In this document: positions 2,840 through 33,353 of the stretch, one piece after another
Position numbering within the stretch: the first letter of the stretch is position 1
Layout of the letters: every line of letters begins with the position of its first letter
IMG/VR virus record: IMGVR_UViG_2579778753_000004
Length of the DNA stretch: 34,205 nt
Strand: one strand, 5' to 3'
Source: a virus
Taxonomy: Duplodnaviria; Heunggongvirae; Uroviricota; Caudoviricetes
The notes under the pieces: model-generated
What the model was told of the DNA's origin: nothing
Seen by the model: the letters and a program-made list of their open reading frames with translations, nothing else
The model's database searches: none
Position numbers and translations under genes: made by a program

Positions 2840-3935
2840 CGGACACCCCGGTCATGTTAAGAGTGATCGCCGTGCAGTTTGCCCATTCGTTTTCTGCCAC
2901 CACCTTCAGCACCGGTGTCACCAGTTCGACCTGGTAGACCCCGGCAACGGACAGCACGCTGATAATCTGGCTGGGGACAATATCGCGCCCCAGCGTGGCG
3001 GTACGGGACGCTACCCAGTTCTGTATGGCGCTGTTGGCGTTGTCCTTTATAGAGTTAGCATCCTGGTCACGATAGATAGTGATGTTGGCTTCAATGGCGT
3101 AATCCACCTGCACAGGTGTTTTAGCCCGCACGGTATCAGTGAGCGGCCTGACTTTTTCGTCCGAGCATAAACTCTCTACAAGCGTAAGGATGCTGTCGTC
3201 CGGCAAGCCGGTGCTGAGCAGCGGATACAGTTCTACAGTGCCGGGAACCGGGGAAAGCACGGCAACATCGACAATATTGGGATGGGCCTGCATGGCATGA
3301 AAGCGGTATGCCATACGGCTTCCGGCGTTGGTGAATGATTCCGGGGCCAGTTTGATACGCTCGCGGAGCCTGTCATTGTCTTCCTGCTCAGAACCGCCAG
3401 AACTGGCCGCCATATTGGTCACCTGCAGGTCGACGTTATCAATCTCATCGAGCAACTGACGGACCTGCGCAGGCTGCCAGCCGTTGCCTGCGGCTCCCGG
3501 CTCGGTACAGGTGGCCGTGGCATTGACAAGCAGCAATCCGGCTTTCAGCACTACGTCCGTATCGGTTGCAAAAATAATGCTGTCGGAAGCGCTGACGCGG
3601 GTACCTGCCGGAATCAGCACATCAATGGCCAGTTCCTCATCCACGGAGAACTGGAGCGTGGTGGTGGCAGGCTGCGCGGCCAGTCGGTATACACCAACCA
3701 GTTCACCGAGGTAATCAATCATCGGCTCACGGGCAAAGGCGACCAGATTCTGTTTGGCCGCTTCCTGCGCCGCCACCCTGACCAGCATTTCGCGGTATGC
3801 CCACAGGTCAATCAACAGGCGCTCAGCCTGAGCGGGGTATAGCGTCTTGCCAGTTGCGGCTTCGTACTGTGCAATCATTTCAGCCGTGATTTTGTCAGCA
3901 TCACGTTCAATAAAATCGGGTTCTGTCAGCGCCAT
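2832..3935 (-). CDS. Baseplate J-like protein (P2 gpJ / Mu gp47 family)
   Basis: 367 aa, position and size; overlaps neighbours by a few nt. Confidence 0.7.
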   Translation of the reverse strand: MALTEPDFIERDADKITAEMIAQYEAATGKTLYPAQAERLLIDLWAYREMLVRVAAQEAAKQNLVAFAREPMIDYLGELVGVYRLAAQPATTTLQFSVDEELAIDVLIPAGTRVSASDSIIFATDTDVVLKAGLLLVNATATCTEPGAAGNGWQPAQVRQLLDEIDNVDLQVTNMAASSGGSEQEDNDRLRERIKLAPESFTNAGSRMAYRFHAMQAHPNIVDVAVLSPVPGTVELYPLLSTGLPDDSILTLVESLCSDEKVRPLTDTVRAKTPVQVDYAIEANITIYRDQDANSIKDNANSAIQNWVASRTATLGRDIVPSQIISVLSVAGVYQVELVTPVLKVVAENEWANCTAITLNMTGVSDG

Positions 3936-4273
3936 AGCAACTCCTGAGTCCGGGGTTGTCCGTCAGAGCCTTTCCAGCTCACCCGGAGCGTAAGATGTTC
4001 GCCGTCGACGGCGGGTTTAACCGACATAAGCTGGCAGCGAGGCTCCCAGCGGCGAATGGCATCGACGGATTCGCGCACCACATGCGGAATAGCCCGGTCA
4101 ATAGGCCAGTCGATATAAAGGTGCAGATTGCTGCCGAACTCCGGGCGATGCGGGTCGCTGCCGCGAGGAGTACGCAGGATGATTTGAATGGCCTGCCAGA
4201 TATCATCCAGCCCCCGGACGATTTCGCCAGGGGCCTGCAGAGCCGGTTGCCAGAATACTGAGGTTGTTTTCAT
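3926..4273 (-). CDS. Baseplate wedge protein, GPW/gp25 family
   Basis: 115 aa, gp25-like size and synteny between V-like and J-like genes. Confidence 0.7.
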   Translation of the reverse strand: MKTTSVFWQPALQAPGEIVRGLDDIWQAIQIILRTPRGSDPHRPEFGSNLHLYIDWPIDRAIPHVVRESVDAIRRWEPRCQLMSVKPAVDGEHLTLRVSWKGSDGQPRTQELLWR

Positions 4274-4327
4274 GGGGGCAGTATTGCCCCTGTGCGGGAA
4301 CGCCGATATTAAAGGCGTTTAAGAAGG

Positions 4328-6212: not shown

Positions 6213-7093
6213 ACACTCCTCGCCAGAATTTTGGCTGCCATGGTGCTTAACCCCGGCGACATACGGGTGAAGGTGGTGCTGGCGGAGTTAAGCTGCCCGG
6301 AAACGGCATCCAGCGCCGCTGCGATATTGCTGCCGTCCACGCCGCTCAGTGAAGACTGTGCCTGTTGTACATACGTGGCCGCATCACTGGTGGCTCTGGC
6401 CAGACTGATGGCATCAGGCATGGATTCAGAAAGCGCATTAAATGCCGGAACGCTTTGACCCAACGCCCCGGACACGTTGCCCAGCCCGCTCATCAACCCC
6501 GGTACGCGGGTCAGTGCAACGGCGGGGTTATCCTTCATTTTCTGCGCCACCCGAACGGCACTGATGGTGGTCTGGAGAACAGACTGCGCCTGTTTGGCGT
6601 AGTTGACGCCGTCGCGGACGTACTGCGCTACCCCGGAAGGTGAAGGAACGGCACCGGAGACCGCCCCGACGCCGGGAACCTGCGTGCGTATTGCGGGTGG
6701 CTGTAGCGGGTTTTTCGGGTCGCCGATGTACTCCCGGAGAGACGCGGTGGCATTGACGGCCAGCACGTTGCCGGTGCTGTCGGTCTGCTCGCTGGTCGCA
6801 GTAACATCGGTAATCACGAACCAGCCGCGATAGTCACCGTTGCCGAAGACCAGCGCCAGCGCTTGATGGGCCTTCATGGCCGTTCGCAGTCTCGCCAGCT
6901 CCACGTCGGGCACACAATAGTGCTGATGGAAGACCAGGCTTATCTGGATTTCGTCCAGCTTATCGCCAACGAACTGCAGGCCGGGCTTACCCTCGATACG
7001 GGGATGCTCCGCATAATCGACGCCGAACGTGACCTCGAAGCCGTCCCAGTAGGTAATCAGTTCAAACTCAATATCACCCAATACTGCAAACAT
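6209..7093 (-). CDS. P2 gpU-like / Mu N (DNA circularisation)-like tail protein
   Basis: 294 aa directly after the tape measure gene; stop/start overlap with neighbours. Confidence 0.55.
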   Translation of the reverse strand: MFAVLGDIEFELITYWDGFEVTFGVDYAEHPRIEGKPGLQFVGDKLDEIQISLVFHQHYCVPDVELARLRTAMKAHQALALVFGNGDYRGWFVITDVTATSEQTDSTGNVLAVNATASLREYIGDPKNPLQPPAIRTQVPGVGAVSGAVPSPSGVAQYVRDGVNYAKQAQSVLQTTISAVRVAQKMKDNPAVALTRVPGLMSGLGNVSGALGQSVPAFNALSESMPDAISLARATSDAATYVQQAQSSLSGVDGSNIAAALDAVSGQLNSASTTFTRMSPGLSTMAAKILARSV

Positions 7094-9558
7094 CAGCTGT
7101 ACCTCCTGCGTTGTTGCTGAGCCAGCAGACGCTCCAGCATTTTCTCCAGCTCATGCAGGCTCATATTCAGTACGCCGGTCAACCCGTCAGGCGCTGCGGT
7201 TTCTTTGCCATTGAGGAAAAACTGAGGATTAAAGCTGACCTGGATACCGCCAGATGTTCCGCTGCCAGTTGCAGCTGCGCCACGACCTGAATATCCCGCC
7301 GCCATGATTTCCGGCGACGGGATACGGGGAACATCCGGTGTCATTTCAGTGGCCAGACGCTGCCCGGCCAGTGCAGCAAGTGGTGTGGTGCGCTGCAGGC
7401 CGATAGCGGCCCCCTGCGCAATGTTGTCACCAAAGCCTATAAACACACGGCTCGGCGAATGAATGCCCAGCTTTTCCTTAAACCAGCCGCCAACACTGTC
7501 GCCCATGTCTGTGACGGTAGTTTTGAGCGACTCCCATTTGTTTTTGATGCCGTTTATTAACCCGTCGATAAGATGGCCACCGAAGTCGGTGAACTTCGCT
7601 GGCAGATCAACACCGAGGTATTTCAGCGCAGCCGCAAAGGCTTTATAGAGCAGACCAACCGGCGACCAGTTAATCAGCAGCTTACCAATCCCCACGACAC
7701 CGCCATTAAACGCCTCTTTAATGTCAGCCCAGCGCTGTTTAAACCAGCTACTGACTGCGCCCCAGTTGCGATAAATAAGGTAAGCTGCTGCCGCGACGGC
7801 GGTGATGGCGAGACCAATGGGATTCATCAGCAGCGCCCGGCCAATCCAGAGAACGGCCCGCCCGGCGATCATAATGCCGCGAACCAGCCCACCTGACAGC
7901 ACACCACCCAGTGTTCTGGCTCCTCTGGCGACGGCGCTGAAGCCGGTCACCAGCCAGCGGAGCTTACCGCCTTCACCGAGTGCAAGCGACAGTCGAAGCC
8001 AGTTGGCCCGCAGTAAAACGGCATTTTTCCAGACGTTAACAAAGGGGGAAATAAGGAGATTCAGCCCCAGCTTGAGACCGATAGTGGCCATCTTGAAAGC
8101 GAGTAATGCTCCTACAACCTTTATGGTGCCGCTGACGATTTGCGGGTTTGCCGCTATCCATTTGCCGACACTGTCCATTAAAGGAATAAAAGTCTCACCC
8201 AGTTGGATCAAGGCCGGGCGTAGTGACTCACCAATGCTGATGGCTGCCTCGTTAAAACCAATCTGAGTTCTGCGCCAACGACCTTCGAGCGTATTATTTT
8301 GTTTTGCAGCATCCTTATCCAGCGTAGACATTGCTGACGGGGTATTCATTTCCTGCTTGCTGGAAAGGTATTTATCCCAGCCCTGACGCATTGACAGTAA
8401 ATGGTTAACGGTCTGAATATCAGTGAAGACTTCTGCCAGACCAAATGACTCCATTAGCTTCTGCTGGCCTTCCTGATCGCCTCTTGAGCCTGCTGCTTTC
8501 CATTGCTGTAAAAACGCCTTACCTTTACCGTCGATAAAACGGTTGGCAATCATCAGTGAGGCTTCATACTGTGAGAAGCCCTGAGCGACGTAATTCTGCA
8601 TTGACCCCTGGTAATCCACCCCGGCTTTAGCATATTTCTGGATGGTATCTCCGCGCCCCATCGCCGCCAGCCAGTTTGACATATTGGTGACGGCCTCTTC
8701 CGCTGAGCCGCTGCCTTTACCAACTTCCAGACTGGCGACGATCTGGGTAATCGCATCTTTTCCATAAATACCACGAGCAGCGAAGGCTTTAGCCATACCG
8801 GGTAATGCTTTTGCCATATCCTTCAGCTCAAATGACCCAAGTTTGGCTCCTGTTGCCGCAATACCAAATGCCTGTTCAAGTTCTTTCGCATCAGTGATTC
8901 TGAGTGCATCGCTGAAGGCATAAGTCATTTTGGCAAGGTCGGTCATATCGGCTTTGGTTGCTGTAGCGGTCTTTCCAAGCATCTCTGCAAACGTTGCTGC
9001 CCGTTCGGGGGCCATACCATCAGCAACTAATTGTCCGACTCCCCCTAACAGAGACTCCTGCAGTTGGTTAACCTTCAGCGAGGCCTGTCTGATAGCCAGG
9101 CCAATTGCACGTTCCTGCCTTGAATCCAGATCACCAGTGACACTGATATCCCGCAACTGCGATTCAAACGAGGCATATTGTTTGACTGAGGCCATGACCG
9201 GTGCACCCAGCGTTCGGGCGATGCCGTAAGTCTCTGCTCCCTGACCATAGAGCGCCATACGGTTGGACTTCAGCGCATCACTGGTGGCCGACACCGCCGA
9301 CAGACGGCGCTGCTGGCGCTCAATTTGCTCCATTGTGCGGCTTACCCGCAGCAGGTCGCTGTTGAGGCGCTGCATCCGGGAAGAACCCAACTGACCATAG
9401 CGTTCTGTTGCACGGGTTAAGGCGTTTTGGCGTTCCTGCAGGCGGCGCGATGTATCGCCCAGGGAATCAAGGGCGCGTCGGGTACCGCTGACGGCTGAGC
9501 GGAAGCTACTCCCGACAATGCCGCCAATAATGACGCCGACTGAAAATTCACTGGCCAC
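7093..9558 (-). CDS. Tail tape measure protein
   Basis: 821 aa, Ala/Gly-rich with hydrophobic segments, downstream of the chaperone; RBS AGAGGA before ATG. Confidence 0.85.
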   Translation of the reverse strand: MASEFSVGVIIGGIVGSSFRSAVSGTRRALDSLGDTSRRLQERQNALTRATERYGQLGSSRMQRLNSDLLRVSRTMEQIERQQRRLSAVSATSDALKSNRMALYGQGAETYGIARTLGAPVMASVKQYASFESQLRDISVTGDLDSRQERAIGLAIRQASLKVNQLQESLLGGVGQLVADGMAPERAATFAEMLGKTATATKADMTDLAKMTYAFSDALRITDAKELEQAFGIAATGAKLGSFELKDMAKALPGMAKAFAARGIYGKDAITQIVASLEVGKGSGSAEEAVTNMSNWLAAMGRGDTIQKYAKAGVDYQGSMQNYVAQGFSQYEASLMIANRFIDGKGKAFLQQWKAAGSRGDQEGQQKLMESFGLAEVFTDIQTVNHLLSMRQGWDKYLSSKQEMNTPSAMSTLDKDAAKQNNTLEGRWRRTQIGFNEAAISIGESLRPALIQLGETFIPLMDSVGKWIAANPQIVSGTIKVVGALLAFKMATIGLKLGLNLLISPFVNVWKNAVLLRANWLRLSLALGEGGKLRWLVTGFSAVARGARTLGGVLSGGLVRGIMIAGRAVLWIGRALLMNPIGLAITAVAAAAYLIYRNWGAVSSWFKQRWADIKEAFNGGVVGIGKLLINWSPVGLLYKAFAAALKYLGVDLPAKFTDFGGHLIDGLINGIKNKWESLKTTVTDMGDSVGGWFKEKLGIHSPSRVFIGFGDNIAQGAAIGLQRTTPLAALAGQRLATEMTPDVPRIPSPEIMAAGYSGRGAAATGSGTSGGIQVSFNPQFFLNGKETAAPDGLTGVLNMSLHELEKMLERLLAQQQRRRYS

Positions 9559-9753
9559 GGTGGTTATCCTCTGAAAGCGGAAAAACGGAAGGAAAATGTC
9601 TGAGAGCCATGCAGAACAGCCGCGAGTAGCGGCTGTTAAGTGATGAGGAGTTAATGATTATCGCCGAACTCGCTTCTGATTTGCACTTCAGCCTGCTCCA
9701 GCCACATCTCCAGATCGTCAGTATCGAGGGCATCAATCTCCCCCGGCTGAAAT

Positions 9754-10068
9754 CTAAACCACCTCGCCAGCAGCCCCTGCGCCTGCATCAGCGTTTTCGT
9801 CGCTCTTGCCCAGCCCAGTGACTTGCTGAAATCGTTTCTGCAGCTCCATGTAGTCGGCAAGATCCATATTATCGAGGTCTTCCGGAAGAATACCGGTGCT
9901 ACGGGCAATCAGCGGCTCGTCCCAGTCAGCCGGGTCTTTACTGATTTTGCGCACCTGCTTCAGGTCTTTGACCGTCAGGCGTTTCAGTTCAACCTGCTCA
10001 ACTCTGGTGCCAGCAGCGGTGGTGAAGGGGTAAGACAGCTTAAAAGTATCGGATTGGGTTTGTGACAT
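9754..10068 (-). CDS. Tail assembly chaperone (lambda G / P2 E analogue)
   Basis: 104 aa acidic protein between tube and tape measure genes; a +1-frame ORF continues to 9651 (see findings). Confidence 0.7.
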   Translation of the reverse strand: MSQTQSDTFKLSYPFTTAAGTRVEQVELKRLTVKDLKQVRKISKDPADWDEPLIARSTGILPEDLDNMDLADYMELQKRFQQVTGLGKSDENADAGAGAAGEVV

Positions 10069-10135
10069 GATCGTGCTCCTGTGTAAGTTCAGAGCAGTAT
10101 GTCTGGTGGTGGGACTGGCAGATATTAAAGGGGAT

Positions 10136-10160
10136 TAAGAAGAAAGGGGCCGAAGCCCCT
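10136..10160 (-). terminator. Candidate intrinsic terminator after the small tail-operon ORF
   Basis: On the minus strand AGGGGC-UUCG-GCCCCU followed by UUUCUUCUUAAU, 6 nt after the stop of ORF 10167-10448. Confidence 0.5.
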
Positions 10161-10166
10161 GTGATA

Positions 10167-10448
10167 TCAGTGAGTGCGAAAGCCTTTGCAGTTACGCAGG
10201 AAGGCGATAAGAAGTACCTTTCCTTCAGATTTGCCGATGCCGGTGAACCAGTGGTCAGGTGGCTCCCATGCCTCAATCAGGTCAGCGAGCTTTCGTGCTT
10301 TGGAGCGTGTGCAGTCAATCGGGTCATTGGTTTTCTGGGTATTAAAAAGGTTTTCCACCCCTGAAATATCAAGGATGGTAAACCACGTACCATTCCCCAT
10401 GCCAATCGAACCACAGTTCCCGCCTTTATCTTCAATCTCGACGGTCAC
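10167..10448 (-). CDS. Hypothetical protein (possible moron between tube and chaperone genes)
   Basis: 93 aa from a GTG start with GGGGG RBS inside the tube gene 3' end (internal ATG gives 77 aa); no family recognised; followed by its own terminator. Confidence 0.5.
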   Translation of the reverse strand: MTVEIEDKGGNCGSIGMGNGTWFTILDISGVENLFNTQKTNDPIDCTRSKARKLADLIEAWEPPDHWFTGIGKSEGKVLLIAFLRNCKGFRTH

Positions 10449-10450
10449 CG

Positions 10451-10972
10451 TCAGCCCCCGATGTTGATGCGGTAGTCGGTCAACTGGTCAATGCCGCCGA
10501 CGCGGAAGATGTTGGCCAGATAGTCCAGCTCCAGCAACTCTTCACCATCCAGTACCTGCTTGATGTACGTGCAGGTGAAGCTACTGGAGAACTCGGCGTT
10601 CTCATGCTGTTTGAACGTCCCCAGCGGGTTCTTCTTAAACATGATCGTCAGGAAAGTGACCAGCGGAATTTCGTCAATCAGCCCCTGCGAGCTGTAGCGC
10701 TGAACGCTGGAACGGCACTGCAGCGCCAGCGACTTATACGGGTTCGCGGCAGACAGCATCGCGTCGCGGTAAAAGCTGTTCCACTTGATCTCGCCCTCAA
10801 GCTTGTCGAAGCCAGCAGGGAGTTCCACCTTGCCCACCATCCCCAGCGCCTTATGCTCCTGCATGGTCATGGAGACGTCAGGCAGTTTGACCTCCTCGGC
10901 CCGGCCCAGCAGGTTAGCGCCATCCAGGTAGATGTTGGCATTCGTGATGCGGTTGATCTCAATCTTTGCCAT
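10451..10972 (-). CDS. Tail tube protein (Mu M / P2 FII family)
   Basis: 173 aa immediately downstream of sheath gene. Confidence 0.8.
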   Translation of the reverse strand: MAKIEINRITNANIYLDGANLLGRAEEVKLPDVSMTMQEHKALGMVGKVELPAGFDKLEGEIKWNSFYRDAMLSAANPYKSLALQCRSSVQRYSSQGLIDEIPLVTFLTIMFKKNPLGTFKQHENAEFSSSFTCTYIKQVLDGEELLELDYLANIFRVGGIDQLTDYRINIGG

Positions 10973-12399
10973 CAGCTATTCCCCTTCAGGGTTAACAGGT
11001 ATTCCGAGGTGATCTCGGTCTCAAACGTCAGTCGCTCCAGCGGCGGTGGCGGCGTGTATTTGTAGCTCAGCAACAGATGACCGGCGGCCAGCTCCATCTC
11101 TTCATTACGGGCCGGATCAAACCAGCAACTGAAGCCCAGCAGTGCACCGTCGCCAATCAGCTTGCGACCGTAGGCGTTGACCGACTCCGTCAGCGCATCA
11201 ATCAGTGCCTGGGTAATCGGCATGTCGATGTACTGCTGGCTGAAATAACGCAGGGACTCGTTGATAACATCACCGGTGCGGCGAACGTTCTCAAAGTTGC
11301 GCATATGGGTGACCGTTGGCCATGCTGCCGTCCGGTTGCCCCACAGACGCAGGCCGCTGCCGTAGCTGCTGAAGACCGTAGTGATGCCCTGTTCGTTGAG
11401 CAGGTTCACCTCGCTCTGCGGGTCATCAATCATTGCCGACAGCTGGCGCTCCACGCCGGTGATACCCAGAATCTCCTGGTTGGAGGACGACCACCAGTAG
11501 CCCTTGTCCAGGTCGACCTTGGCACGCAGACCTGCAGCACGCTGGCTCAGCGGCTCCAGCCGTTCGCTGTTGGTGGCCGCGTCGTACACCTTGACGTGCG
11601 GATAGCACAGACGGACGCGGTCGGAGCTGGTATTGAAGTTAATGGTGCCTTCCGGGCCACGCCCCGCCAGAGCCTGCGCAAAAGTGGTACCAATCGGCGC
11701 GTCGATGTAGGTCACCGCGCCCAGCTTCTCAGCCATGGCGATAAGCTCAACCGAGACGCTGTTCTGGGTGCAGAATACCGGGGCAATCAGAATTTTGGCG
11801 AAGTAGCCAAACAGGTTGAAGCTGTCGTTAAGCAACTTCATGCCGGTACGGTTGCCTGCCGCGTTAACGGTACCGATGATATCAGCCGGGGTGACTTTGG
11901 TCGGATCGGCATAGTTATAGCTGGCCTTCACCGTTGCATCTGCAGCAATGCTTTTACCAAGATTAGTAATCACCCCGGTCTGCGCATCAAGCGAGTAGTC
12001 CTGACCTTCCACATAAGGCTGACCGTCGCTGTCCGGTTTCAGTACCAGCTGCGCGATCACCGGATTAGCCAGCTGTGCCTTGCCCGTCGCCTTTTCGAAT
12101 GTTACGTCTTCATCGGCCACAGCGGTTTTATGCACAGCCGGATCAAGCACGTTAATGACCAGAACGGTGCCTGCCCCATGGTCGTAGATCGCATCCAGTG
12201 CCTGCGGAATGGTAAAGCCAGTGAGCTGGCTGCCAAACGCCGCTGCATCTTTCTCAGACAGGCACTGCACCAGCGTATTGACGTCTCCCATTGGGGCGGT
12301 ACCAATCAGGCCAATGACGGCGGATTTCACCGTTTTAACCGGGCGGGCACCGTTTTCCACCTCAATGGTTTCGACGCCATGCAGATAGTTAGCTGACAT
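10972..12399 (-). CDS. Contractile tail sheath protein (Mu L / P2 FI family)
   Basis: 475 aa, sheath-like size and synteny. Confidence 0.85.
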   Translation of the reverse strand: MSANYLHGVETIEVENGARPVKTVKSAVIGLIGTAPMGDVNTLVQCLSEKDAAAFGSQLTGFTIPQALDAIYDHGAGTVLVINVLDPAVHKTAVADEDVTFEKATGKAQLANPVIAQLVLKPDSDGQPYVEGQDYSLDAQTGVITNLGKSIAADATVKASYNYADPTKVTPADIIGTVNAAGNRTGMKLLNDSFNLFGYFAKILIAPVFCTQNSVSVELIAMAEKLGAVTYIDAPIGTTFAQALAGRGPEGTINFNTSSDRVRLCYPHVKVYDAATNSERLEPLSQRAAGLRAKVDLDKGYWWSSSNQEILGITGVERQLSAMIDDPQSEVNLLNEQGITTVFSSYGSGLRLWGNRTAAWPTVTHMRNFENVRRTGDVINESLRYFSQQYIDMPITQALIDALTESVNAYGRKLIGDGALLGFSCWFDPARNEEMELAAGHLLLSYKYTPPPPLERLTFETEITSEYLLTLKGNS

Positions 12400-15983: not shown

Positions 15984-16116
15984 TTTGCTGTCCCGCGTTA
16001 CGTTGTCGGGGACAGTCTGTGGAAAAAGCGTCAGCAGCGCTTTTAATCTGCTTTAGAAAAAATCGGGGGTATCAGTACGGGGAATGTCACGCTGCGGGCG
16101 AATAGTGGTGCAAAGC

Positions 16117-16152
16117 GGGGGCTGTAAAGCCTTTATAAAGGTAATACAGCCC
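16117..16152. promoter_or_regulatory. 36-bp imperfect palindrome in the G-I intergenic gap
   Basis: GGGGCTGTA-AAG-CCTTTATAAAGG-TAA-TACAGCCCC: 9-bp outer arms plus a perfect 12-bp inner palindrome, in a 214-bp non-coding gap of an otherwise overlapping operon. Confidence 0.45.
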
Positions 16153-16197
16153 CTCAGCGGCTGGCAATGATAAATCACCCGCCTGCAGAGACAAAAC

Positions 16198-32549: not shown

Positions 32550-32967
32550 GCAGCGTCTTATTCAACTCATTCATATTGCCCGCAGCGACCTCCAGATGGA
32601 TGAGGACACCTACCGCCAGATGCTACAGGGGCTGACCGGCAAAGCCTCAACCAAAGGGATGGATACCCCACAACTAAACCGCGTGCTGGAATCAATGAAA
32701 AAGAAAGGCTTTCGCATTAAGCCTGCCGGGAAAGCCAAGTCCGGCTTACCGCTCGACAGCCATCCGCAGTCAAAGAAAATCCGTGCGCTATGGCTTGAAA
32801 TGGCTGCCGCAGGCATCGTCCGTGACAGTTCAGAGCAGGCGCTGGCGCTGTGGGTTAAACGGGAAACCGGCATCAGCGCGTTACGCTGGCTCAGCAATGA
32901 GCAGGCAAGTAGCGTGATTGAGAAACTGAAGAAGTGGCAGCGCAGAGCTGCGGGAGTGAAGCAATGA
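32539..32967 (+). CDS. gemA: GemA-like protein (Mu gp16 family)
   Basis: Start at ATGATG 32539 with RBS AAAGGAG; ...LIQLIHIARSDLQMDEDTYRQML... aligns with Mu GemA as I recall it. Confidence 0.65.
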   Translation: MMTKQRLIQLIHIARSDLQMDEDTYRQMLQGLTGKASTKGMDTPQLNRVLESMKKKGFRIKPAGKAKSGLPLDSHPQSKKIRALWLEMAAAGIVRDSSEQALALWVKRETGISALRWLSNEQASSVIEKLKKWQRRAAGVKQ

Positions 32968-33353
32968 GCGACCTGAATCAGTTTCGTAGTAAAGGGCCGG
33001 AACTGTTGGTGGAACTGGCACAGCATACCTCTGAGACTGTCCGCGAGATTATTGATATCGAACCCGCAGTTGCCGACCAGATTGGTCAGGCCGTCGCGAA
33101 CCGCATGATGCAGGTCTGGGGTGGGCAAAACGTCTATTTTCCGATGGGCATGGTCTGGAAGGTCAGCCAGCGCGACCGGGAAATTTTCCTGGAGTTTGAC
33201 GGGCGCAACCATCACGAACTGGCCCGCAAATTTGGTGTTTCACTACAGTGGGTTTACAGCGTGGTGAAGCGGGTCAGAAAAGAAGAACTGGATCGGATGC
33301 AGGGCAAACTGTTTGATGGCGAACCTGATGCCGATACAGGGAAAAAGGAGTAA
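32964..33353 (+). CDS. mor: Mor/C-family transcriptional activator
   Basis: ...VWGGQNVYFPMG...FDGRNHHELARKFGVSLQWVYSVVKR... aligns with Mu Mor (GGQ.VYIP ... FNGRN..EL...YGV....VY) from memory; ATGA overlap with gemA. Confidence 0.75.
   Translation: MSDLNQFRSKGPELLVELAQHTSETVREIIDIEPAVADQIGQAVANRMMQVWGGQNVYFPMGMVWKVSQRDREIFLEFDGRNHHELARKFGVSLQWVYSVVKRVRKEELDRMQGKLFDGEPDADTGKKE

Follow-up and report, generated by a model that had tools for sequence, protein, structure and literature searches.

The DNA considered here is the 34,205 nt IMG/VR virus record IMGVR_UViG_2579778753_000004 ('the window', meaning this whole stretch), and its feature of interest is a small gene, the 93 aa open reading frame ORF93, located between the genes for the tail tube and the tail assembly chaperone and followed by a hairpin and a non-coding spacer. 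A preliminary description, made from the letters of the sequence, had assigned the ORF to 'no recognisable family' and had read gene plus hairpin as a moron. Comparison with relatives points instead to an accessory gene of the DUF7739 / phrog_1239 family, probably carried as cargo at the end of the sheath–tube late unit, ahead of a putative terminator that is older than the insertion, and of a candidate late promoter. All genes of the tail region lie on the minus strand:

10972–12399, minus: tail sheath (PF04984 / PF17482)
10451–10972, minus: tail tube of the P2 FII / BcepMu gp40 type (PF04985, E 4.8e-54; 68 % identity to BcepMu gp40)
10167–10448, minus: ORF93, DUF7739 / phrog_1239 accessory gene (93 aa, GTG start)
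10069–10166, minus: non-coding stretch (98 nt)
9754–10068, minus: tail assembly chaperone of the P2 gpE / BcepMu gp41 type (PF10109, E 6.8e-23)
9651–9908, minus: gpE′-like extension, a second frame overlapping the chaperone (phrog_8286, E 1.6e-30)
7093–9558, minus: tape measure

In the order of its genes and in their families (sheath, tube, chaperone plus frameshift extension, tape measure) the block corresponds to P2 FI-FII-E-E′-T and BcepMu gp39–gp44, from which the window differs by the extra cistron between tube and chaperone. The position given to the ORF in the preliminary description was borne out by its PF04985 and PF10109 neighbours, as was the presence of a hairpin and U-tract within 6 nt of its stop codon, followed by the 98 nt non-coding stretch. 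Contrary to what had been stated, other sizeable spacers exist: the late strand has further gaps of 92 nt (9559–9650), 54 nt (4274–4327) and 214 nt (15984–16197). The 92 nt gap, between the gpE′-like frame and the tape measure start, contains a perfect 9 bp hairpin (AACAGCCGC-UACUC-GCGGCUGUU, 9615–9637, minus) without a U-tract.

Identity of the stretch is 100 % with Escherichia phage Phi06_2974 B, 96 % with Klebsiella phage KP12 and 88 % with Escherichia phage PhiKM, a member of Bcepmuvirus by its classification. The window is a BcepMu-like transposable prophage of Enterobacterales with a Mu head and a P2 tail. The tube–ORF–chaperone stretch is present in 642 of 5426 complete Escherichia coli genomes, full length in 634 of them (~99 % of copies), and the prophage carrying it occurs in ~12 % of complete E. 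coli genomes. The stretch is also found in Klebsiella, Serratia, Photorhabdus and others. An 8 kb contig of an actinobacterial assembly (Arthrobacter sp. GMC3 NODE_28, L032; L numbers are those of the compared sequences) carries an enterobacterial prophage junction with a tube protein 96 % identical, and is probably assembly contamination.

ORF93 and its family

ORF93 begins with GTG 2 nt past the tube stop codon and ends with a stop codon at 10169–10167. In Serratia and Photorhabdus the corresponding codon is ATG. The N-terminus (MTVE; M[TS]VE in the family) and the full length are kept in distant homologues, and residues N19, W22, F83, C87, G89 and F90 are invariant between ORF93 and its homologues. 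Pairwise ratios of nonsynonymous to synonymous substitution rates (dN/dS) between ORF93 and copies in other prophages are 0.03–0.21, falling between those of the tube (0.02–0.04) and the chaperone (0.06–0.32). On this evidence ORF93 is a real gene under purifying selection; its homology and dN/dS rule out a chance ORF.

ORF93 matches phrog_1239 with E 7e-45 (ORF residues 1–93 on profile positions 1–96). The direct match to Pfam DUF7739 (PF24881) covers residues 16–63 only and scores 19.1 bits (E 0.002), below the cut-off of 27. PF24881 is matched by 50 of 51 aligned relatives of ORF93, and a profile built from ORF93 and its phage homologues retrieved 166 proteins, many of them named 'DUF7739 domain-containing protein', with E values of 1e-43 to 1e-23 for the proteins so named. 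Judged by these profile matches, ORF93 is a divergent member of DUF7739 / phrog_1239. The family is small: only 84 clusters came out when 1.84 billion representatives were scanned exhaustively with HMMER. With family members such as gene 22 of Shigella phage Sf6, ORF93 shares full-length homology, the invariant residues and a similar size (93–102 aa). The window copy differs in belonging to a divergent 93 aa clade below the Pfam cut-off, and in being located in the late tail operon of a myovirus rather than in an early-left accessory region, as in lambdoid and P22-like phages. The profile search proposed in the preliminary description thus supplied a family, while the structure prediction proposed alongside it led to no significant Foldseek match in PDB or BFVD.

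The predicted product is 10.3 kDa with an isoelectric point (pI) of 6.06, a net charge of −1.3 at pH 7, a grand average of hydropathy (GRAVY) of −0.34 and no membrane segment; its AlphaFold model has a predicted local distance difference test score (pLDDT) of 91. The GC content of ORF93 is 0.50. A check of composition, also proposed earlier, gave a divided answer: GC at third codon positions (GC3) is 0.55, well under that of the tube (0.82) and sheath (0.70), yet close to that of the chaperone (0.60) and tape measure (0.56).

A variable slot and its hairpin

Tube and chaperone had been described as normally adjacent, and this is so in relatives from several hosts: the tube is directly followed by the chaperone in BcepMu, phiE255, a Salmonella Infantis prophage, Pseudomonas phage Bise and Pasteurella phage AFS-2018a. 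Relative to these phages ORF93 is, from gene order, an insertion. The junction was surveyed in one genome per species, scanned with a tube-protein alignment; 87 tube–chaperone junctions were measured, with gaps of 5 to 2210 nt. Cargo proteins in the slot were assigned to Pfam families, and the contents were as follows:

DUF7739 alone: window type, Mixta, Intestinirhabdus, Trabulsiella, Symbiopectobacterium, Serratia, Photorhabdus
gp49 / Sf6-gene-66 protein (PF13876), 97–99 aa, plus DUF7739: five genera (L023, L024, L027, L030, L033; ~3019–3318)
66 aa ORF: Pectobacterium
cysteine-less plant-type ferredoxin-like ORF, 109–110 aa (PF00111, E 1.5e-4): other Pectobacterium (L059, L061, L063, L065, L067, L069; ~3040–3372)
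CdiA-CT RNase A-type toxin (PF18431, E 1e-31) plus CdiI_2 immunity protein: a Neisseriaceae genome (L085, 3096–4343)
DUF4145 plus HEPN-like protein: Iodobacter (L098, 3185–4715)
antisense cargo: Chromobacterium, Lysobacter
insertion sequence (IS) element behind DUF7739: Pantoea stewartii
nothing: Erwinia (tube 97 % identical), Xenorhabdus, Brenneria, Salmonella type, most Betaproteobacteria

The CdiA-CT/CdiI_2 pair and the DUF4145 plus HEPN proteins are conflict-system cargo at the tube–chaperone junction. When the family profile was compared by hhalign with the CdiI_2 protein and with the 66 aa Pectobacterium cargo, both proved unrelated. Where two genes share the slot, the PF13876 gene is placed between the tube and DUF7739; the two are otherwise typical of the accessory gene pool of Sf6/P22-like phages. 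The ferredoxin-like ORF of Pectobacterium has its cluster-binding cysteines replaced (YSSRAGADPSSAARL) and lies between two hairpins, one directly after the tube and one ahead of the promoter.

Erwinia and Xenorhabdus prophages with tube proteins 94–97 % identical lack ORF93, and truncations or frameshifts affect the DUF7739 gene of Mixta mediterraneensis, Apirhabdus and several Photorhabdus. Comparison of the junction across relatives, which had been suggested at the outset, therefore shows a gene that is not core. Because the slot is variously filled or empty and DUF7739 copies are in places truncated or frameshifted, the junction is, across the surveyed genomes, a cargo hotspot and ORF93 dispensable cargo, though under selection where it is intact. 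A decayed prophage on a metagenome contig (SRR21898912_24694, L105, 2513–4491) has fragmented sheath, tube and chaperone genes and an intact 93 aa DUF7739 ORF.

The hairpin after ORF93, AGGGGC-UUCG-GCCCCU (10160–10145, minus), starts 6 nt past the stop codon and is followed by UUCUUCUU at 10144–10137. It has a 6 bp stem with five G–C pairs, a UUCG loop and a tail in which 6 of 8 positions are U. Folded alone it reaches −11.8 kcal/mol (z-score −2.7), matched by 1 of 200 shuffles; the whole 132 nt spacer has a z-score of −0.3, so that stability is limited to the hairpin. A search of Rfam with 9400–10700 gave no match.

A hairpin with T-tract follows the tube at 74 of the 87 junctions under strict criteria, relatives without the ORF included, and is built from at least 15 different stems. 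In BcepMu, GGCCCGC-UUCG-GCGGGCC-UUUUUU stands directly after the tube stop, and the Salmonella-type junction has UUCGGGGC-UGCG-GCCCCGAA-UUU. Six junction hairpins were folded and gave −11.8 to −24.1 kcal/mol (z-scores −2.7 to −5.5). Homology between the window and the ORF-less Erwinia prophage with the 97 % identical tube (L031) runs as far as the tube stop, breaks off there, and resumes at 89 % with the hairpin's 3′ arm, continuing through the entire spacer. Co-oriented cargo, ORF93 included, lies between the tube stop and the hairpin, and antisense or large cargo lies beyond the hairpin. Since relatives without the ORF carry hairpin and T-tract, and Erwinia shares the 3′ arm and spacer, the hairpin is, on this comparison, an ancestral part of the sheath–tube unit and not ORF93's own. 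It is a putative intrinsic terminator. The tube is the last ancestral gene of the upstream late unit, and the chaperone is the first gene of the downstream late unit.

Candidate late promoters, activator and prophage

Downstream of the hairpin the spacer contains a dyad, TTAA-N6-TTAA (TTAATCCCCTTTAA, 10138–10125, minus), whose first TT overlaps the U-tract, and exactly 23 nt past it the −10-like hexamer CATACT (10101–10096, minus). The corresponding −35 position reads TATCTG, a 1/6 match to TTGACA. Exact copies of the dyad number three in the window (0.18 expected), each directly upstream of a late gene block, and the full pattern of dyad, N23 and hexamer occurs twice (0.01 expected). With one site that has a mismatch, four candidate late promoters can be listed, all with the 23 nt spacing between dyad and hexamer (4/4 window sites):

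23453–23411, minus: candidate late promoter 1, TTAACGCTGTTTAA-N23-GATGCT, upstream of the holin gene (PF13272, E 1.4e-41)
16056–16014, minus: candidate late promoter 2, CTAAAGCAGATTAA-N23-CAGACT, one mismatch, in the 214 nt gap upstream of a head gene (PF05069, virion morphogenesis)
10138–10096, minus: candidate late promoter 3, TTAA-N6-TTAA-N23-CATACT, in the junction spacer upstream of the chaperone
4322–4280, minus: candidate late promoter 4, TTAAACGCCTTTAA-N23-AATACT, upstream of the gpW/gp25 baseplate gene (PF04965, E 7e-11)

Sites 1, 2 and 4 have the common architecture (T/C)TAA-N6-TTAA-N23-nAnnCT. The hexamer of the baseplate promoter ends 6 nt ahead of the annotated gpW/gp25 ATG (4273–4285); its mRNA would be leaderless, unless the start codon has been wrongly assigned. 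The dyad is conserved in Gamma- and Betaproteobacterial relatives, of which the Betaproteobacterial ones keep the spacing and have the hexamer GACAAT.

The window also encodes a Mor/C-family activator (32934–33353, plus strand; PF08765, E 1.3e-42). In a related prophage that has a common stretch with the window, by exact matches of 60 nt probes, the NCBI Prokaryotic Genome Annotation Pipeline (PGAP) names this product 'Mor transcription activator family protein'. At the late promoters of Mu a −10 hexamer is present and a −35 absent, and C binds a dyad whose centre is at −43.5; C activates Plys, PI, PP and Pmom, and Mor activates Pm (PMC2582627). The window is similar in having four sites ahead of late blocks, each −10-like without a −35 and with a dyad ~43 bp upstream, and an encoded Mor/C activator. 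At the junction spacer the dyad centre falls at about −42.5 to −43.5. The window differs from Mu in the dyad sequence (TTAA-N6-TTAA) and in that a single Mor/C homologue is seen. The dyad is proposed as the binding site of the Mor-family activator, and the Mor-family protein is presumed to activate the four late promoters. Because dyad and spacing are repeated, a Mor-family activator is encoded and the dyad position is Mu-like, the spacer is read as an operon boundary made up of a presumptive terminator and a presumptive Mor-type late promoter. A consensus scan for a sigma-70-like promoter upstream of ORF93, at sequence level, found none near 10449–10600.

A related prophage in E. coli CFS3292 (L102), which has the probe-checked stretch in common with the window, encodes a Mor-family activator along with a DDE transposase and an ExeA-like B protein. 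It interrupts gadC, which encodes an acid-resistance antiporter (L102, 495–1052 and 35495–36499); such an insertion is in line with transposition by a Mu-like phage. Towards the right end of the window it gave no match at the single position probed, 34101. At the start of the window (1 to ~1800), the first 60 nt match the CFS3292 prophage in reverse complement only, and the corresponding stretch there is adjoined by a recombinase-family gene and two opposed tail-fibre assembly genes. This arrangement suggests a Gin/Cin-type invertible tail-fibre segment that is in opposite orientation in the two prophages.

Expression and role of ORF93

The explanation considered probable, with appreciable room for doubt, is that ORF93 is DUF7739 cargo in the sheath–tube late unit, located ahead of an ancestral terminator and a Mor-type promoter. 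An intrinsic terminator at the tube–chaperone junction would end the sheath–tube late transcript, and a Mor/C-type activator-dependent promoter would restart transcription for the chaperone, tape measure and later genes. Together the two would probably set a high ratio of sheath and tube to chaperone and tape measure. In BcepMu-like phages, in contrast to P2, a terminator and promoter would thus split the tail block between tube and chaperone. The suggestion that the hairpin could be a dose-setting attenuator for downstream tail genes came near the mark, though it overlooked the candidate Mor/C-type late promoter in the same spacer. A mobile DUF7739 / phrog_1239 gene would have been captured between the tube stop and the ancestral terminator. 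ORF93 would then be the last cistron of the sheath–tube late mRNA, probably translationally coupled to the tube, and from its capture at this position it is predicted to be expressed late, abundantly and in lytic growth only. It would be kept by purifying selection while being dispensable for tail assembly. Its product is most likely soluble and cytoplasmic, and would bind and neutralise a protein of the host or of a competitor during lytic development, as a host-takeover or counter-defence accessory.

Several observations weigh against this explanation. A generic terminator scan of the 8 kb region found 7 terminators against 7.3 expected from shuffles; since there is no enrichment, the case for the ORF93 hairpin rests on its conserved position in relatives. 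Its U-tract (UUCUUCUU) is interrupted. The stem is invariant within the ORF93-bearing clade, and covariation is seen only between lineages whose hairpins are not alignable base for base. The BcepMu spacer has no exact TTAA-N6-TTAA, and Foldseek with ORF93 against PDB and BFVD gave no match at E ≤ 0.001.

One alternative is the reading of ORF93 as a classical moron, an autonomous gene with its own promoter and terminator that is expressed from the repressed prophage and serves lysogen exclusion or anti-phage defence. Among known arrangements, that of ORF93 comes closest to late-operon morons (the HK97/lambda concept), small extra genes between structural genes that are adjacent in relatives, and to Tab, 83 aa, which lies in the late operon of the Mu-like phage JBD26 and protects the lysogen (PMC10884400). 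ORF93 resembles them in its insertion, in its composition as far as the upstream genes go (a GC3 under theirs, though close to that of the downstream chaperone and tape measure), in its conserved neighbours and in a slot whose cargo varies by lineage, with toxin/immunity and DUF4145 plus HEPN genes in other lineages; its survival intact in the decayed remnant L105 is also in keeping with a moron. The part of the moron signature concerning insertion therefore stands. The part concerning an independent unit does not: the hairpin is common to relatives without the ORF, the ORF starts 2 nt past the tube stop and no sigma-70-like site was found upstream, so that ORF93, as far as the scan and the relatives tell, lacks two defining moron features, its own promoter and its own terminator. 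The terminator would be inherited from the host operon, and expression is predicted with the late genes and not from the prophage. Scans with PADLOC and NCBIfam gave no match for ORF93, its product is predicted to be soluble and has no membrane segment, and elsewhere DUF7739 lies within early lytic operons and not in lysogen-expressed positions. This reading is accordingly rated improbable.

Slightly less improbable, and still unlikely, is that ORF93 is expressed late so as to be packaged in or attached to the particle and to act in the next host. The homologue gp123 of Yersinia phage fHe-Yen8-01 is annotated 'particle associated protein'; in ~92 kb phages (L020, L021; 5001–5309) the DUF7739 gene adjoins an N6/N4 DNA methylase, with an ART-PolyVal protein of ~2410 aa one or two genes downstream; and ORF93 is predicted to be co-expressed with the most abundant tail proteins. 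The annotation is not traceable to data (a literature search on fHe-Yen8-01 for its source found no paper), lambdoid and P22-like phages have the gene in an early-left operon, and it is missing in close relatives with near-identical tail proteins. That ORF93 might be a core tail-assembly factor of this lineage, such as a tube or sheath accessory, has the least credit of all. Its location among tail genes, its purifying selection and its identical position in 634 of 642 E. coli copies and in several genera are what such a factor would show. Against this, it is missing in viable BcepMu and phiE255 and in the Erwinia and Xenorhabdus prophages with 94–97 % identical tubes, is truncated or frameshifted in several prophages, and has homologues in Sf6, CUS-3 and HK75 outside the structural modules. 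A core tail gene was rejected on its absence or decay in close relatives.

The location of DUF7739 in other phages bears on its role. Lambdoid and P22-like phages carry it in their PL-type early-left operon, with the recombination genes on one side and xis/int on the other, as do Sf6 (gene 22), EPP-1, and Plesiomonas, Rosenbergiella and other prophages. Homologues occur in podoviruses (Sf6, CUS-3) and siphoviruses (HK75). Because the lambdoid and BcepMu-like copies sit in lytic-cycle operons, the exclusion or defence function offered in the preliminary description, and a lysogen-protecting role in general, is not favoured by gene context. Literature searches found no papers on DUF7739 and nothing relevant on YfbM/DUF1877. 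A PDB sequence search with ORF93 alone returned a chance homeobox match at E 1, and the family profile returned nothing.

The fold of ORF93 has weak resemblance to DMP12 of Neisseria (3w1o), the CdiI protein of Burkholderia pseudomallei E479 (5j4a) and E. coli YfbM (1ryl), with 9–11 % sequence identity and nothing significant in Foldseek. The modelled structure thus weakly resembles small inhibitor or immunity proteins, and is to be taken as a lead only. ORF93 differs from CdiI in that no toxin partner adjoins it, and from DMP12 in that it is not acidic. A DNA mimic was rejected on its near-neutral character (pI 6.06, charge −1.3), and a lambda Ea8.5-like zinc or homeodomain protein on the lack of a PDB sequence match and on its single invariant cysteine. 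The best guess, of low confidence, is an accessory that binds proteins and in lytic growth targets a factor of the host or of a competitor. A more specific proposal, for which the prospects are slim, is that DUF7739 is a counter-defence or host-takeover family not recognised so far, its small proteins inhibiting a host immunity or housekeeping protein by binding it, and that in BcepMu-like phages the gene was moved to the 3′ end of the tube gene for a high late dose, for example to blunt a system sensing late structural proteins.

The elements described are of known kinds (moron-like cargo, Mu-type promoters, DUF7739), their architecture is well supported, and the placement of ORF93 is ordinary phage mosaicism and no new system. 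Phage biologists are familiar with cargo at operon boundaries, and the finding would not surprise them. Its value is mostly in annotation: in place of orphan or tail gene, ORF93 can be entered as accessory cargo of the DUF7739 / phrog_1239 family, and hairpin and spacer as the putative end of the sheath–tube unit and a candidate Mor-type late promoter. It also provides a predicted four-promoter late transcription map for a prophage present in ~12 % of complete E. coli genomes. Additionally, the junction is a recurrent cargo site (toxin/immunity, HEPN and small genes), which is useful for accessory-gene mining. If the counter-defence proposal were true, the terminator/promoter junction would be a hunting ground for defence and anti-defence genes in Mu-like prophages of Beta- and Gammaproteobacteria.

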